Shown: positions 1 through 4,952 of the stretch, one piece after another
Numbering within the stretch: position 1 is the first letter of the stretch
Layout: the number at the start of each line of letters is the position of its first letter
IMG/VR virus record: IMGVR_UViG_2713896771_000019
Reading direction: 5' to 3' (one strand)
Length of the DNA stretch: 4,952 nt
From: a virus
Lineage: Duplodnaviria; Heunggongvirae; Uroviricota; Caudoviricetes
Notes under the pieces: generated by a model
Told to the model about the DNA's origin: nothing
The model's database searches: none
The model's input: only the letters and a program-made list of their open reading frames with translations
Translations under genes and position numbers: made by a program

Positions 1-1253
1 GAACGGATGCACCCCCATAAAGCCGTGTGATTTTCCGTCTTGTTCCCGGCCTCCTCTATGCGCTCCAGTTCAGCAGGGGCGCGGGGAACGTCAATCACCA
101 CCATGGACACAATCTCTTCGCCATCGGTATCGGTGAACACCTCCACGCTTTTAAGGTCGTATGCGCTCTCTTTTGGCTCCTCTGCGTCCTTCATCTTCGT
201 ACATGCCGCCACCAGTGCTGTAACGTCTGAATTTTCCCGGCCGATTCGGTACTCTGCATCAAGCGCGGCACGGAATGCGCTGGAACCACGCGCCCCCTTT
301 GTTTCATCCTTGCCGGAATGGTGAACCACCAGCACCGTGGCCCCTGTAGCCTGCTTTATCGCGTCACACCCCTGGATAAATGCGCCCATATCACGGGAAT
401 CATTTTCATCATTCCCACCAAAGCAACGGGCCAGCGTGTCGATCACAATCAGCCGCACATTTTCGCCCGTTCTGCTCTTAACAAGTCCGGCAGTCCTGAT
501 AACCTGCTCCACATAGTCAGGCGATGCGGGAAAGACAGGCGCGTTAACGATGCACAAATCTGTAACCTCTTTTCCGTATGTTATCTCCCACGCCTTAACG
601 CGGCGTTTTACGCCCATACTGCCTTCGCCAGCGATATAGATAACAGCGCCCTTACTTACCCTGCGGCCTCCCCATGCCATACCTGTGGCAACATGGCACG
701 ACCAGGAAATAGCCAGGAACGATTTATAAGAACCGCTGGCCCCGTAGGTGCTGCATAATGACTCAGCCGGAATAAGCCCCTTAATTACGTAGCTTTGCTG
801 CGCGTCGAATCCCTCAGAACCCCATGAGATGGGAAGTGTGATTTTTCGCTTTCCACCATTCATGACCAGACTTTCCCCGCGTTCCCAGGTTTCTTTAAGT
901 CGCGGTAGTTGCTCGCTCCAGTCCTCCAGCAGTTCGAAATTCTCTGAAAGTAACCGTGCTTCCTGAACACCTGCGATCGCCAGTTTGGTGGCAATGGTCA
1001 GCATCTGCATATCGTCCAGGTTTCCGGCGCGTATGACCTTTGCTCTGTATCGTCCTTCATCAACAATCTGTAAATTGTCCAGTTCGCTTAACTGATAACG
1101 GCCCAGGTAAACCGGAGGGATGGGATCGCCTGCTTTTTTGGCCTGTGCAATCATGTAATGTTCTGCAAAGGAGTGAGCATTATCACCCGCAAAAATAACC
1201 GCCTCAGTGTGTTTATCTTTCGGTAACAGTTTTACGTTCGGTGCCAGTTTCAT
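1..1253 (-). CDS. RepA-like (AAA_25 / RecA-fold) ATPase, probable replication helicase; 3' end truncated by the window edge
   Basis: Manual translation of the minus strand from ATG at 1253-1251 gives at least 417 codons with no stop before position 1 (not in the supplied ORF track, presumably because it is incomplete). SD-like GAGGT lies 5 nt upstream, and an in-frame TAA lies 2 codons upstream of the ATG. Motifs seen: Walker-A-like GASGSYKS, Walker-B-like LIVIDTL, and VVHHSGKDETKGARGSSAFRAALD, which resembles the H-x-GK / RGSSA signature of RepA/AAA_25 helicases. The N-terminal ~150 aa has no motif I recognise. Confidence 0.7.
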   Translation of the reverse strand, partial: MKLAPNVKLLPKDKHTEAVIFAGDNAHSFAEHYMIAQAKKAGDPIPPVYLGRYQLSELDNLQIVDEGRYRAKVIRAGNLDDMQMLTIATKLAIAGVQEARLLSENFELLEDWSEQLPRLKETWERGESLVMNGGKRKITLPISWGSEGFDAQQSYVIKGLIPAESLCSTYGASGSYKSFLAISWSCHVATGMAWGGRRVSKGAVIYIAGEGSMGVKRRVKAWEITYGKEVTDLCIVNAPVFPASPDYVEQVIRTAGLVKSRTGENVRLIVIDTLARCFGGNDENDSRDMGAFIQGCDAIKQATGATVLVVHHSGKDETKGARGSSAFRAALDAEYRIGRENSDVTALVAACTKMKDAEEPKESAYDLKSVEVFTDTDGEEIVSMVVIDVPRAPAELERIEEAGNKTENHTALWGCIR

Positions 1254-1549
1254 TTTTTACCTCTGGATGCGCTGAGCATGCTTTTTATTTTCTTAATATT
1301 TTCCCGTGCTTTTTCCCTGCTGGTGGGCTTACCGCGTGTTGCGTTCTGTACCAGAGAAAAATCACGCCGGAACTGATAAACAGGCATCACGCAGTCATAG
1401 CCGTACCCATCACGGCGGTAAGTAACACACCGTCCCGCCACGCTTTTAATCGTTACAGTGCCGCCGTATTTATCTTTGAAAATATCGCCGGGGCGGATTT
1501 CAGGCCGAGAGAGGCCGCTGGCAGTAAAGCCAGAATTTTTCTGTTTCAT
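1250..1549 (-). CDS. Hypothetical small basic protein (99 aa), possible small beta-rich domain
   Basis: Complete ORF in the track. SD-like GGAGAA lies ~8 nt upstream of the ATG at 1549. Its TGA stop overlaps the ATG of the downstream ATPase (ATGA, 1250-1253), which suggests translational coupling. The motif PEIRPGDIFKDKYGGTVTIKSV...VTYRRDGY resembles small phage-associated domains of unknown function; that assignment is tentative. Confidence 0.55.
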   Translation of the reverse strand: MKQKNSGFTASGLSRPEIRPGDIFKDKYGGTVTIKSVAGRCVTYRRDGYGYDCVMPVYQFRRDFSLVQNATRGKPTSREKARENIKKIKSMLSASRGKK

Positions 1550-1554
1550 GGTTT

Positions 1555-1782
1555 TTATTCTCCGGTGTGATGCGTTTTATTATTCTCGTGAATTGCCATC
1601 ACCGTATTTAATTCGTTAATTACTGGCGTTAATAATGTGTGCACGGCAGAAAACATCATGGGATATGATTCATCGCCATTTTCCGGCACTTCCATTAACT
1701 TAAGTAATAATGCCTCCATTTCCTTTGCGCGGATTAATGCGTTTTCAGAATGAATAAGAACATCAAAAGGTATTTTATGCAT
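1555..1782 (-). CDS. Hypothetical protein (75 aa from the ATG at 1782; the ORF extends to 1818)
   Basis: The track ORF 1555..1818 starts at an ATG with no SD. The internal ATG at 1782-1780 has GGGAGA ~8 nt upstream and overlaps the upstream gene by only 8 bp, so 1782 is the preferred start. No recognisable motifs. Confidence 0.45.
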   Translation of the reverse strand: MHKIPFDVLIHSENALIRAKEMEALLLKLMEVPENGDESYPMMFSAVHTLLTPVINELNTVMAIHENNKTHHTGE

Positions 1783-2005
1783 CACACAGTTTCTCCCTGA
1801 TTCTTTTAGTGTCCTCATTGAGGATGTCTGTAGCTTTTGTCAGTGAGTTTTTGGTAATTATTTTTATTGTTTTAAATTTTCTTTTGTCGTACTCCGACTG
1901 TGATTTCTTCTCCATAATCTCTACCATGCAATTTATATCCACAAGCGCATGTATCAGTACTTTCAATGCTTCGCCTGCTGCGTCCGGCGTGTTTTTATTG
2001 CACAT
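1775..2005 (-). CDS. Hypothetical protein (76 aa), Lys/Glu-rich
   Basis: Complete ORF in the track. A perfect AGGAGG SD lies 6 nt upstream of the ATG at 2005-2003. The start overlaps the 3' end of the upstream ORF by 11 bp. No recognisable motifs. Confidence 0.5.
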   Translation of the reverse strand: MCNKNTPDAAGEALKVLIHALVDINCMVEIMEKKSQSEYDKRKFKTIKIITKNSLTKATDILNEDTKRIREKLCDA

Positions 2006-2201
2006 GATGCACCTCCTGACGAATACGGGCGGCGAATACCATCACGCAGCCATCAGGAGATTGCTGGCGGGCTTCCTGTTCGCTGGTGGCCTCGATGGTA
2101 ATCACGCGCGGCTGTGCCGTGCTCAGGGCGATAAAACGCCAGATGTATTTATTCAGGTTGTGCGAGTCCCGCCCTTGCGGGTGTGTGGTATGATTTCTCA
2201 T
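1995..2201 (-). CDS. Small protein (68 aa), putative Icd-like (P4-type host cell division inhibitor-like), first gene of the minus-strand operon
   Basis: This is the C-terminal in-frame part of the 308-aa track ORF 1995..2921. The internal ATG at 2201-2199 is preceded by GAGGT. Manual translation: MRNHTTHPQGRDSHNLNKYIWRFIALSTAQPRVITIEATSEQEARQQSPDGCVMVFAARIRQEVHHVQ. The W-x-F-x-A ... EARxx ... FAAR pattern matches my recollection of Icd-like proteins in P4-like prophages; this is unverified. Confidence 0.45.
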   Translation of the reverse strand: MRNHTTHPQGRDSHNLNKYIWRFIALSTAQPRVITIEATSEQEARQQSPDGCVMVFAARIRQEVHHVQ

Positions 2202-2296
2202 AGCTACCTCGATACTTTCGCTATCGTTGGTGGTTAGAGGCTGCGAAAGGACGGCAATCCTTTCCAGCCTCGTTTGCATTGAGTGATAGTTACTCA

Positions 2297-2377
2297 ACTG
2301 GATTCCAGTATAATCACCAAGTGGAATCCACTTCAAGCATTTTGTTTTGGTCTTTTTCGTGTATACTGGATTCCAGT
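2297..2377. promoter_or_regulatory. Divergent switch region with three palindromic operator-like sites (consensus TGGAWTCCA)
   Basis: ACTGGATTCCAGT at 2297-2309 and again at 2365-2377 are identical 13-bp palindromes. GTGGAATCCAC at 2321-2331 is an 11-bp palindrome with the same half-sites. TATAAT at 2309-2314 and TATACT at 2362-2367 abut sites 1 and 3 on the plus strand. The region lies between the divergent 59-aa ORF and the minus-strand operon. Confidence 0.5.
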
Positions 2378-2397
2378 AATCACAAAGGAAACCAGAA

Positions 2398-2577
2398 ATG
2401 GAAAGAGACCATATCAATAACAAATCACAGAAATTACAGGCTCGCGCCCCGCATGAAGTTGTTGAGGCAATGGAGCAAGTCAAAGAAACGGGCGAGAGTA
2501 CTGCGCAGTTTATCGTTACAGCCATGCGTGGCGAGATCAAACGCCGCCAGCGGCGCAAGGCCAAAGAGCAGGAATAG
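2398..2577 (+). CDS. Small basic protein (59 aa), candidate DNA-binding regulator of the switch
   Basis: Found by manual translation (below the size cut-off of the ORF track): MERDHINNKSQKLQARAPHEVVEAMEQVKETGESTAQFIVTAMRGEIKRRQRRKAKEQE. AAGGAA SD lies 7 nt upstream of the ATG. A 7-bp stem-loop (2582-2600) follows the TAG stop, and a strong intrinsic terminator lies ~100 bp further downstream. It is transcribed divergently from the operon across the operator palindromes. Confidence 0.5.
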   Translation: MERDHINNKSQKLQARAPHEVVEAMEQVKETGESTAQFIVTAMRGEIKRRQRRKAKEQE

Positions 2578-2680
2578 CCCCACCGGAATTTTTTTCCGGT
2601 TACGCTTTGCCCACCAGCCGCAAATGTGGCATTGTTGGCTATGCTCATGCGTTGGGGATAACGCGCAATTAGTGTTGAAG

Positions 2681-2709
2681 GGCCACCGTAGCGGGTGGCC
2701 TTTGTTTTG
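2681..2709 (+). terminator. Rho-independent terminator (plus strand)
   Basis: Stem GGCCACC (2681-2687), loop GTAGCG, stem GGTGGCC (2694-2700), then TTTGTTTTG. No T-run on the opposite strand. Confidence 0.7.
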
Positions 2710-2746
2710 CCTGTTATCCGGCAATTGTGGCGCTTCGTCACACGGT

Positions 2747-2755
2747 TGATATAAT
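2747..2755 (+). promoter_or_regulatory. Extended -10 promoter element TGATATAAT (plus strand)
   Basis: TGnTATAAT is matched exactly at 2747-2755. The -35 is weak (TTGTGG at 2725-2730, 19-bp spacer). No protein-coding gene follows on the plus strand. Confidence 0.4.
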
Positions 2756-2761
2756 TTCCCT

Positions 2762-2832
2762 GCACTGATCCATTTTTTTCGCAGCAGGTTAATTGTTCAG
2801 AAAGGCGGCTCATTATCGGGGCCGCTTTTTTT
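2762..2832 (+). ncRNA. Candidate ~70-nt small RNA (orphan promoter-to-terminator unit)
   Basis: Predicted start ~7 nt after the extended -10; ends at the terminator 2801-2832. There is no ATG-initiated ORF in the interval. Purely structural inference. Confidence 0.25.
2801..2832 (+). terminator. Rho-independent terminator (plus strand; weak T-run on the minus side as well)
   Basis: AAAGGCGGC (2801-2809), loop, GCCGC (2821-2825), followed by seven T (2826-2832). The stem is 9-11 bp including G-U pairs. Confidence 0.65.
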
Positions 2833-2973: not shown

Positions 2974-3162
2974 TTAGTGAACTGCCTCGCAGCTGTCTTT
3001 CCATGCCAGAACTTCGGATAAAGACCAGCCAACGGAACGACCGCCGAGCTTACGCCGTGATGGGAATTGTCCGGCTTTTTCCAGGCGGTACCGACATGAG
3101 CGGCTCAGGCCTGTAAGTTGCTGACATTCTTTTTCACGTATAAAGCGATCTGTGCTTAACAC
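2974..3162 (-). CDS. alpA: AlpA/Vis-family phage transcriptional regulator (62 aa, MerR-like HTH)
   Basis: Track ORF; the start codon is GTG at 3162-3160, preceded by a strong SD AAGGGGG (4 nt spacer). The motif LTGLSRSCRYRLEKAGQFPSRRKLGGRSVGWSLSEVLAW matches the AlpA-family signature (HTH ... FP ... LG.RSVGW...E...W). It lies downstream of, and in the same orientation as, the integrase, as in P4-like elements. Confidence 0.8.
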   Translation of the reverse strand: MLSTDRFIREKECQQLTGLSRSCRYRLEKAGQFPSRRKLGGRSVGWSLSEVLAWKDSCEAVH

Positions 3163-3192
3163 AATTCCCCCTTTGTTGTTTCTTAAAGAGTC

Positions 3193-3240
3193 ATTGGGTG
3201 GGTTATTGGGTTGGGTTGTGTCGGATTGTGTCAGGGTGTT
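3193..3240. repeat. G/T-rich degenerate repeats (TTGGGT x3, TTGTGTC x2) in 10-bp register, upstream of the alpA start
   Basis: TTGGGT at 3194, 3206 and 3211; (G/A)TTGTGTC at 3215-3222 and 3225-3232. The region is 30-80 bp upstream of the alpA GTG on the minus strand, so it falls in the alpA promoter region. Confidence 0.45.
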
Positions 3241-3457: not shown

Positions 3458-3517
3458 TTGTTCCAGATTGTTCGCCGTTGTTCGTCGTTGTGTCTCGTTG
3501 TTTCACGTTGTGTCCGT
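3458..3517. repeat. Six tandem 10-bp repeats TTGT(T/G)(T/C)CNCG directly downstream of the int stop
   Basis: Units: ttgttccaga, ttgttcgccg, ttgttcgtcg, ttgtgtctcg, ttgtttcacg, ttgtgtccgt, contiguous with perfect 10-bp register. The array ends ~20 bp from the int TAA (3539-3541). Confidence 0.7.
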
Positions 3518-3538: not shown

Positions 3539-4789
3539 TTATATTTCTCTGGCTATTGGCAGTGTGGTTACGTTTTCGTGAGCACCTGCCAGTATCTCTA
3601 ATCGCTCTGTCCACATATCCAGCGCATTACGTTTCGCATCGATATAACGGGAGTGGTTATAGACTCGTTGCATCCCTGGCATCTGGTGAGCGGTGAGTTG
3701 TTCGACAATATGTGGATCCACGCCTAAATCGTTCAGCATCGTGGTAAACGTGCGCCGTATATCGTGTAGTGACCAGTGCGGATGGTTTAATTTTTTGTGC
3801 GTGAATCTGCCGTATTGCGACACGCTGGCTTCCTGTTTCAGTTCCCCGAGTAATAGCCCTGTGTGCCTGTTCTGCTCCACCAGCTGTGTGACGAACGGCA
3901 AAATGCTTTCCGGTATTGGCCTGAATATGGCGACCTTCGTTTTGCTGTGCTCTTTCGGTACTGTCCAGAGCATTTCCTTAAAATCCCACTCCCTGATCTC
4001 CGACAGCCTCAGTTCTCCGGTCCGGCAGCCGAACACAATCAGGAGGCGGATTAGTGCGCTGTAGTAGGGCGGGAATATTTTTTTATCCAGCGCCTGTAAT
4101 AATTCGCTCAGTTCTTTGTTGCTCAGCACGCGTTCGCTTATGCCCGGCTTTTTGCCAACGTCCACCACGTTGAGATCATCCAGAACGTTACTGACTGCGT
4201 AGCGACGTTTACGGCAGAACTTAAGCGCCTGTTTACACGCCTGCATCATGTGGCCAGATGTTACGGGTGATTTTTTGCGTATCCGGTCAAAACAGGCCAG
4301 CCAGTGACGTAACTCGCATTTATCCAGTGGCATATTGCCAATATGCTGTATGACGTGATTATTAAGGCGGCTTTTCAGGCATACGTAATCGACACGGTTT
4401 TCCTTTACGTGCATTTCCAGCCAGTAGCTGATCGCATCGCCCACCGTTACCGGCTTTAGTGCTTCCTGTATGGAGTAATTAAGCTCATGGCGTGGATTTT
4501 TTCCTTCTGCCAGCCATGCGCGACACTGTGCTGCTTTTTCCCTGGCTGCTTTCAGGCTCAGATCAGGATAATTTCCCAGTTTCAGGCGTTCCGGTGATAC
4601 CTGGCGTCCTGTTCCTGCCCTGTAGGTGAAATACCAGGTTAACAGGCCGCTGGTGGAGTGTCTGATACTCAGATTTCCACCGTCATTAAGAAAGGTGGTT
4701 TTTTGGGCTGGTGTGCCGTTGATTTTTCTTAGCTGCGTGTCGCTCAGTTTGTTAAGTGCCCTGCTCATAATTTTGAATCCGGTCATCAC
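3539..4789 (-). CDS. int: P4-family tyrosine site-specific integrase (416 aa)
   Basis: Track ORF. The N-terminal arm-binding-like region (LSDTQLRK...FLNDGGNLSIR...YFTYRAGTGRQVSPERLKLGNYPDLSLKAAREKA) resembles P4-type integrases. The C-terminal catalytic region carries the tyrosine-recombinase signatures GCRTGELRLSE, HDIRRTF and a Tyr in RVYNHSRY. The first codon at 4789 is GTG; alternative ATG starts lie at 4786 and 4768, none with a clear SD. Confidence 0.9.
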   Translation of the reverse strand: MMTGFKIMSRALNKLSDTQLRKINGTPAQKTTFLNDGGNLSIRHSTSGLLTWYFTYRAGTGRQVSPERLKLGNYPDLSLKAAREKAAQCRAWLAEGKNPRHELNYSIQEALKPVTVGDAISYWLEMHVKENRVDYVCLKSRLNNHVIQHIGNMPLDKCELRHWLACFDRIRKKSPVTSGHMMQACKQALKFCRKRRYAVSNVLDDLNVVDVGKKPGISERVLSNKELSELLQALDKKIFPPYYSALIRLLIVFGCRTGELRLSEIREWDFKEMLWTVPKEHSKTKVAIFRPIPESILPFVTQLVEQNRHTGLLLGELKQEASVSQYGRFTHKKLNHPHWSLHDIRRTFTTMLNDLGVDPHIVEQLTAHQMPGMQRVYNHSRYIDAKRNALDMWTERLEILAGAHENVTTLPIAREI

Positions 4790-4814: not shown

Positions 4815-4830
4815 GATCATTGCACAAGGG

Positions 4831-4860
4831 GGTACAACGTGGAACAAGCTGGAACAAGAA
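4831..4860. repeat. Three tandem 10-bp repeats GG(T/A)ACAA(C/G)NT upstream of int, the inverse of the array downstream of int
   Basis: Units ggtacaacgt, ggaacaagct, ggaacaagaa. Read on the minus strand they give CTTGTTCCAG / CTTGTTCCAC / GTTGTACC, sharing the 9-mer TTGTTCCAG (plus 3458-3466; minus 4857-4849) and CACGTTGT (plus 3504-3511; minus 4841-4834) with the 3458-3517 array. Confidence 0.65.
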
Positions 4861-4952
4861 AAATTGCAATAGACTTAAAAATCAAAAACATAATGAACAA
4901 CGTGGCACATTATGAAACAGCAAAAAACACTAATTTATAAAAATCCGCTATT

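Follow-up and report, generated by a model that had tools for sequence, protein, structure and literature searches.

The 59-amino acid protein encoded in the integrase-proximal end of an Escherichia coli phage satellite is probably a sequence-specific repressor and autoregulator, of the ribbon-helix-helix (RHH) type, of the Icd-like/replication operon of the satellite. The assignment is based on the reality of the gene, on DNA boxes that occupy fixed positions on two divergent promoters, on the covariation of these boxes with a short segment of the protein, and on neighbouring elements that are uncoupled from both; from these observations we infer the fold of the protein, its binding to the boxes and the sign of the regulation. 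The original prediction, which was made from the letters of the window alone (the window being the whole stretch of 4,952 nucleotides that was analysed), had put forward the open reading frame (ORF) as a candidate regulator of a divergent switch, and the comparison of related loci described below strongly supports that proposal.

A small gene conserved in phage satellites

The window represents one end of a PICI or cf-PICI, a type of phage satellite, in E. coli, namely the end that bears the integrase gene. The minus strand of the window carries a tyrosine integrase gene, alpA and an operon that runs from an Icd-like gene to replication functions, and the integrase gene, alpA, a DUF4222 gene and a RepA-type helicase gene follow one another in the order of the PICI/cf-PICI layout (Table 1). 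The closest relative in complete E. coli genomes, L001, is 93% identical over 92% of the window and carries, beyond the region corresponding to the window, genes for SSB, ProQ/FinO, capsid, protease, portal, connectors, HNH and TerS/TerL; since these include capsid and packaging genes, L001 is a capsid-forming PICI. The classical PICI layout is found in a second relative, L002, and in the prototype EcCICFT073, and some part of the window is matched by 1925 of the 5426 complete E. coli genomes.

Table 1. Positions of features in the window and in the 59-amino acid protein
Feature	Position	Strand	Remarks
int (tyrosine integrase)	3539-4789	-	ORF and domain searches
alpA (Pfam Phage_AlpA)	2974-3162	-	upstream on the operon strand; uncoupled from box class
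Intrinsic-terminator-like stem-loop with T-rich tail	2678-2713	+	end of the ORF transcript; folding z = -3.4
Hairpin directly 3' of the ORF stop codon	2582-2600	+
59-amino acid ORF, YlcI/YnfO family, proposed repressor	2398-2577	+	ATG start, TAG stop
Shine-Dalgarno sequence AAGGAA	2385-2390	+	7 nt before the ATG
Box O3, ACTGGATTCCAGT	2365-2377		last 3 nt of the ORF -10 and start region
-10 TATACT of the ORF's own promoter	2362-2367	+	48/61 unique relatives
Operon promoter	2307-2336	-	-35 TTGAAG (2336-2331), 18-nt spacer, -10 TATACT (2312-2307)
Box O2, AGTGGAATCCACT	2320-2332		fills the spacer, abuts the operon -35
Box O1, ACTGGATTCCAGT, core TGGATTCCA	2297-2309		overlaps the operon promoter at its -10 and start region
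Specificity block, boxes and codons 1-43	2288-2527		only segment exchanged as a unit between box classes
Structured 5' operon leader	2202-2272	-	hairpin 2271-2237, invariant UCUAACCAC, hairpin 2226-2210 beside the Shine-Dalgarno sequence
Icd-like gene (NF033153)	1995-2201	-	first in operon
Small operon ORFs	1775-2005 and 1555-1818	-	after the Icd-like gene
DUF4222 gene	1250-1549	-	in operon
RepA-type AAA_25 helicase gene	from 1253 leftwards	-	operon
Predicted DNA-reading strand	residues 11-17
Predicted helix A	residues 19-29
Predicted turn G32-E33-S34	residues 32-34
Predicted helix B	residues 35-44
Invariant basic tail GEIKRRQRRKAK	residues 45-56

The ORF on the opposite strand is a real gene under purifying selection. 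The original prediction had stated that a reading frame not conserved among related islands would speak against it, and conservation is in fact clear. The comparison covered the window, two annotated E. coli loci, 80 loci from metagenomes and 12 from genomes, 95 in total; a single locus, truncated by the end of its contig, lacks the complete frame, and the other two frames contain stops in 56/62 and 57/62 sequences. The median dN/dS over 46 aligned codons is 0.039 within the specificity classes defined below and 0.196 between them, and between genera the synonymous differences are near saturation (pS 0.6-0.9) at pN values of 0.05-0.12. The features by which the ORF had first been singled out are all present: the Shine-Dalgarno sequence with its 7-nt spacing, which is replaced by a GGAG-type sequence at the same place in relatives; the Lys/Arg-rich C-terminus KRRQRRKAK, which corresponds to residues 48-56; a hairpin and terminator of its own, the latter consisting of a G+C-rich stem-loop at 2678-2703 followed by GTTTTG; and an orientation divergent from the minus-strand operon across three near-palindromic boxes.

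Two of the earlier statements about the ORF need revision. It had been called unannotated, which holds for the supplied ORF track only, since in relatives the RefSeq/PGAP annotation gives the orthologue the name “YlcI/YnfO family protein”, the prototype PICI EcCICFT073 being among the annotated elements. It had also not been assignable to a family from the sequence alone, but its score on the NCBIfam model NF041551 (YlcI/YnfO, N-terminal domain), all 42 positions of which are covered by residues 9-50, is 72.3 bits, with the cut-off at 30, and it matches phrog_949, a family without an assigned function, with 95.5 bits. A search of 5.8 billion proteins returned 108 close homologues of 59-64 amino acids across the Enterobacterales, in genera that include Escherichia, Salmonella, Klebsiella, Serratia, Yersinia, Xenorhabdus, Pantoea, Pectobacterium and Edwardsiella. 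When 1.84 billion cluster representatives were searched exhaustively with a profile, only 93 clusters emerged, so the family is small; tblastn of the satellite subfamily against 50,697 phage records gave no match.

Some members of the family depart from this plan. Proteins of about 100 amino acids (L002 11976-12281; P0113, P0117 and P0126) contain a helical insert of about 40 residues between GEIARRQ and the basic C-terminal end, and the position of this insert implies that the invariant tail can be set at a distance from the part of the protein that is predicted to bind DNA. A small extra ORF is found on the same strand just downstream of the repressor gene in CFT073 (L095 243-416) and in L002 (12339-12512); the CFT073 version encodes 57 amino acids with an RKRRRRK motif, and the ORF is absent from the window.

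Boxes on divergent promoters and their covariation with the protein

The sequence TGGAWTCCA occurs three times in the window where 0.06 occurrences are expected, and none of 200 shuffled sequences reaches three. Across the related loci the boxes take the general form NN-TG-N5-CA-NN, with three per locus that start at -33, -78 and -101 (in some classes -103 or -113) from the start codon, and the spacing between O2 and O3 is 45 bp in 58/61 unique regions. The boxes are positioned on the promoters in a regular manner: the operon -35, which is TTGAAG or TTGACG in 54/61 relatives, abuts O2; the operon -10, TATACT or TATAGT, has its last three bases in common with O1; and the -10 on the ORF strand has its last three bases in common with O3. 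The operon promoter elements hold their positions in all box classes, and when loci of the same class are compared across genera the islands of conservation are the boxes, the promoter hexamers and the Shine-Dalgarno sequence. O3 is a putative autoregulatory site, and in several classes it is consistently degenerate (for example TGTCCCCCA as compared with TGTGGCCCA in EcCICFT073), which suggests a lower affinity for this copy. No further boxes are found near the alpA or int promoters, and the one match with two mismatches, inside int, is at chance level.

The promoter of the ORF has no recognisable good -35, the stretch upstream of its -10 being T-rich, and the absence of a -35 is typical of promoters that depend on an activator. 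The protein bound to the boxes might therefore act mainly as an activator or in a dual capacity, for instance by stimulating its own weak promoter from O2, in the manner of CI of lambda at PRM, or by being needed to turn the operon on. The 45-bp distance by which O2 lies upstream of O3 is strictly conserved, and the control published for Gram-negative islands is positive only. O1 and O2, however, lie within the core operon promoter and O3 lies on the -10/+1 region of the ORF, which are positions at which a bound protein normally occludes RNA polymerase, and no box occupies the classical activator position for the operon. A predominantly activating or dual role is accordingly rated as unlikely, and repression remains the preferred reading of the box positions.

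The boxes fall into 16 classes, each of which has its own variants of residues 11-18 of the protein. In the class of the window these residues are QK(L/V/I)QARAP and the box is TGGA(T/A/C/G)TCCA, the window itself combining KLQARA with TGGATTCCA. Among the other classes, QKMSARVP goes with TGGCACCCA (two Xenorhabdus species, Proteus and metagenomes), QQLNARFP with TGAATCGCA (Citrobacter, Morganella and others), QALKARVP with TGTGGCCCA (EcCICFT073), QSVTARIA with TGTCTTACA (L001), QMTTVRIP with TGAAATACA (metagenomes) and KKLEARVP with TGTCAGCCA (metagenomes). When each position of the protein is scored by its difference rate between classes minus that within classes, the positions that track class most closely are Q14 (0.92), A17 (0.80), K12 (0.72) and E23 (0.71). 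Arg16 does not vary, and neither do the outer TG and CA of the boxes.

The distribution of the classes among genomes provides some side observations. The class of the window is present in 99/5426 complete E. coli genomes, each time in a single copy, and Xenorhabdus innexi DSM 16336 carries two elements (L006 and L009) that have different box classes. Both observations are compatible with exclusion of the immunity type, in a sample far too small for a test. The class of the window is also found in E. coli O157:H7 strain 3-5-1, in a prophage-embedded PICI (L097, 13107-13286; a helper-embedded PICI) that is inserted in the terminase large-subunit gene of the prophage; a Bro-N gene separates its repressor gene from alpA. 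This element has a primase instead of the RepA-type helicase, and the regulator at the position of AlpA is annotated with a different length.

Because the boxes adjoin the gene, lying within about 130 bp of the codons for the N-terminus, some co-inheritance is expected from linkage alone, and linkage could by itself mimic covariation. Recombination between such close neighbours is rare, and it must be asked whether the boxes are read by some other factor, provided by the host, by a helper phage or by another gene of the island, with the covariation due to hitch-hiking and the ORF serving an unrelated role; the labelling of the neighbouring Icd-like family as “transcriptional repressor” by PHROGs would fit such a reader. 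A host factor, however, could not follow 16 different box sequences, and factors encoded outside the block 2288-2527 (the Icd-like protein, AlpA and the leader hairpin) shuffle independently of class. Moreover, the covariation is not protein-wide but is concentrated at alternate positions of a short N-terminal segment beside the invariant arginine, and within a class the boxes and the strand are kept from genus to genus against a background of diverging synonymous and spacer positions. It is therefore very unlikely that the boxes belong to another factor.

The extent of the exchanged segment can be seen directly in 547 pairs of E. coli-type loci that differ in class. Identity in these pairs is 84-98% across the Icd-like gene and the leader, drops to 37-70% over approximately 2248-2527, and is 91-95% in the last 14 codons; the comparison of the window with L001 yields the same divergent block. 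The left part of the block, which contains the tip of the leader hairpin, is uncoupled from class, and the strictly coupled portion, which is what E. coli islands of otherwise about 90-98% identity exchange, consists of the boxes and codons 1-43. This repressor/box module is found in the backbone of a cf-PICI (L001, with its class swapped), in EcCICFT073 and in the prophage-embedded PICI.

Candidates outside the block were rejected individually. The Icd-like protein of the E. coli type, considered as a box binder on account of its PHROGs label, is near-identical across at least eight box classes. AlpA was rejected as a box binder since AlpA proteins 100% identical to that of the window occur with four classes and a single class occurs with AlpAs that are 31-66% identical to that of the window. 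The leader hairpin was rejected as a part of the specificity cassette, one hairpin type being found with three box classes.

The regions on either side of the module have features of their own. The annotations of the Icd-like protein conflict, phrog_6196 describing it as a “transcriptional repressor” (E = 5e-46) and NCBIfam as a host cell division inhibitor, Icd-like. In the hairpins of the leader that precedes its gene, 11 of the 15 predicted pairs display compensatory changes among 25 diverse relatives, and the leader could serve in attenuation or in RNA processing, or be bound by an RNA or by a ProQ/FinO protein. The known RNA immunity elements C4 and isrK were rejected for the window, where neither has an Rfam match at E <= 1; the sole Rfam match, at the leader, is a weak R1162-antisense-like one (28.8 bits, E = 0.053) that falls below the gathering score. 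Between the repressor gene and alpA there is a candidate small RNA gene (window 2747-2832, plus strand). Its extended -10, TGATATAAT (2747-2755), is invariant and is accompanied by a highly conserved stretch of about 70 nt (GCAGCAGGTTAATTGTTC); the terminator (2804-2832) occurs, among 13 relatives, as one or the other of two hairpins. This segment contains no ATG and has no Rfam match, and no duplex of the candidate RNA (2762-2832) with the window was better than those of shuffled controls; the RNA would be antisense to any transcript that reads through from alpA.

A second mosaic block is located within the operon at window 1551-2000, where the two small ORFs (phrog_2196 and phrog_5146, which have no function assigned there) are 42-78% identical to L001; L001 has three different small ORFs in this block, and both flanks are more than 90% identical. 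Upstream of alpA and int there are direct repeats with a phase of about 10 bp that are built on GTTGT(G/T)T, and the complement of these repeats (ACAAC/GGAACAAG) is found near the end of the island (3190-3240, 3465-3515 and 4824-4863 in all). The repeat runs are likely to be arm-type binding sites of the integrase and/or binding sites of AlpA.

The predicted fold and a proposed switch

The protein has an RHH-like order of elements, with an alternating strand (K12-L13-Q14-A15-R16-A17-P18), a helix at 19-28, a G-x-S turn (G32-E33-S34) and a hydrophobic helix B at 35-43, and a dimeric RHH fold is likely. This fold is predicted from the pattern of the sequence, because no Pfam family matches above its threshold and structure searches are uninformative. 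The search with HMMs that had been suggested for finding a helix-turn-helix (HTH) or RHH fold identified the family NF041551; every match to an RHH family of Pfam is sub-threshold and no HTH family of Pfam matches the ORF. The best RHH match of the protein of the window is to PSK_trans_fac, with 15.8 bits against a cut-off of 28.3; the best among 51 family members are to RHH_1 (E = 4.5e-4) and PSK_trans_fac (E = 2.9e-4), again below threshold, and the sub-threshold matches that recur are mostly of the RHH type (PSK_trans_fac, CB_ParB_C, HicB-like, RHH_1 and TacA1). A sequence-profile search of the PDB gave chance matches only. The AlphaFold monomer (pLDDT 76.7) has a short helix, not a strand, at residues 13-16, and the fold predicted for a natural tandem-repeat relative is poor (pLDDT 57).

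Pairwise alignment with hhalign sets KSQKLQARAPHEVVEAMEQVKE on KMPQFNLRWPREVLDLVRKVAEE of Arc, with Mnt in the same register, although the statistics of these alignments are weak (E = 0.0015 at a probability of 16%; probabilities of 5-16% in all). In this register K12, Q14 and R16 fall on Q9, N11 and R13 of Arc, which are the base-contacting residues in the structure of Arc with its operator. The covariation follows an alternate-residue pattern of specificity, with residues 12 and 14 (plus 17) tracking class.

The weak Pfam similarities of the family to antitoxin and centromere-binding RHH families, together with the small ORF that follows the repressor gene in some relatives, could be taken to indicate a protein of the VapB, HicB, ParG or omega-like type instead of a regulator of the satellite life cycle. 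Such a role is highly improbable, given that the ORF of the window is monocistronic, with its own terminator and with no toxin or ParA partner in the window, that the boxes lie on the promoter of a replication operon, and that the satellite family is confined to the junction between int/alpA and the replication genes of satellites.

If the protein is a repressor of the RHH type, the switch may be pictured as follows. The N-terminal strand (residues 11-17) of an RHH dimer would enter the major groove of a 9-bp TG-N5-CA box, one dimer per box, where the outer TG/CA, which is invariant, would be read by the likewise invariant Arg16, and recognition of the variable centre of the box would fall to the variable residues 12 and 14 (with 17). 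Protein bound at O2, against the -35, and at O1, on the -10/+1 region, would shut the strong leftward operon promoter and so keep the integrated island quiet, and protein bound at O3, on the -10/+1 region of its own weak promoter, would limit its own synthesis. Because different islands carry different matched pairs of protein and box, in at least 16 classes, these pairs would act as immunity types. AlpA overexpression alone is reported to induce EcCICFT073, in work that reported no repressor, so any repression must be overridable by AlpA. Read-through is one possible route of induction, since on the operon strand alpA precedes the operon and the repressor gene is situated between the two in antisense orientation: transcription from the alpA side might, speculatively, read through the repressor gene in the antisense direction into the operon and override the repressor.

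The regulation of Gram-negative PICIs has been described in terms of activation. Gram-positive PICIs have a master repressor that is inactivated by helper phages, while in Gram-negative PICIs AlpA is an activator whose expression is triggered by the helper phage; the founding paper called the global repressor of the Gram-negative islands “unclear” and the difference between the Gram-positive and Gram-negative strategies of induction “a mystery”. A later paper on genome organisation placed immunity RNAs and Bro proteins, and not a protein repressor of the present kind, in the same zone, and a 2026 survey did no more than include “YlcI/YnfO, prophage-associated protein” among the accessory genes of cf-PICIs. 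No repressor for Gram-negative PICIs is described in the literature searched. In EcCICFT073 the gene bears a locus tag that was added late (C_RS30120), beside an equally late-added Icd-like gene, and it may for this reason be missing from the maps used in the work on that island. A small repressor with cognate operators is a well-known kind of regulator, and the comparison of sequences supports the recognition of a putative one where none had been recognised.

A wider reading, which is offered tentatively and with somewhat less than even confidence, is that Gram-negative PICIs and cf-PICIs, EcCICFT073 included, have in this protein their missing master (immunity) repressor, that the 16 or more types are immunity groups that decide on coexistence and cross-repression, and that the tail GEIKRRQR, invariant irrespective of class, would serve as a handle by which the repressor is removed, through AlpA-driven read-through or by a factor of the helper phage. 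If this wider reading is true, a switch consisting of a repressor plus an activator replaces the “activator only” picture of control in Gram-negative PICIs. A repressor of the proposed kind would explain the silence of integrated Gram-negative islands, would predict immunity groups among satellites that are found in about a third of complete E. coli genomes, and would supply engineered PICI vectors and synthetic circuits with a compact set of natural repressor/operator pairs that are orthogonal and whose specificity residues can be read.

Relation to known regulatory systems

In protein architecture there is a parallel with Arc and Mnt of the immI region of P22. The likeness consists of the very small size of the protein (Arc has 53 amino acids), the predicted strand-helix-helix order, the hhalign register over R-x-P-x-E-V, the location of specificity, judged here from the covariation, in alternate residues of the strand, and operators that overlap divergent promoters. 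The 59-amino acid protein nevertheless has no significant sequence similarity to Arc or Mnt, and unlike them it possesses an additional invariant basic C-terminal helix and is encoded in a satellite, not in a phage. Arc binds a 21-bp operator as a tetramer, whereas the satellite gene is associated with three separate boxes of 9-13 bp.

The namesakes of the family in E. coli K-12 are YlcI of DLP12 and YnfO of Qin (NF041551/DUF3950), and the protein of the window lies well above the cut-off of this family. It has in common with the K-12 YlcI the pattern R-F-P...G-S...hydrophobic helix, but its identity to YlcI is only about 20%, with a BLASTP E value of 0.78. The contexts of the genes differ too: in DLP12, ylcI has ybcW and nohD as its neighbours, belongs to the late region of this lambdoid prophage and is not preceded by a TG-N5-CA triplet, whereas the gene of the window is flanked by alpA on one side and by the Icd-like/replication operon of the satellite on the other. 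No reported function for YlcI or YnfO was found in the literature searched.

In its genetic arrangement the locus resembles those of Stl and Rpr in SaPIs and other Gram-positive PICIs, in which the regulator is located next to int and is divergent from the excision/replication operon. Stl and Rpr keep the island silent until a helper phage acts, and are inactivated by binding proteins of the helper phage; they are much larger than the 59-amino acid protein of the window and probably unrelated to it. The RNA-based immunity of the P1/P7 immI region (c4 RNA-icd-ant) and the CI RNA of P4 also have a counterpart here, in that the operon begins with an Icd-like gene behind a conserved structured leader, and RNA-based immunity has been proposed for some Gram-negative PICIs. 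In contrast to these RNA systems, the element that is specific to each class in the satellites is the protein/box pair and not the leader hairpin.

The logic of the proposed switch resembles that of the lambdoid CI/Cro system with its operators OR1-3, in which three operators are common to two back-to-back promoters and, as is proposed here, the repressor is autoregulated. The satellites differ from lambdoid phages in that a single tiny non-HTH protein takes the place of the repressor, with no Cro-like partner identified and no cleavage domain of the LexA type, and in that the activator, AlpA, is encoded separately. As in lambdoid phages, matched cassettes of repressor and operator are swapped among otherwise similar elements, an exchange that gives rise to many immunity types in those phages and would do so in the satellites.
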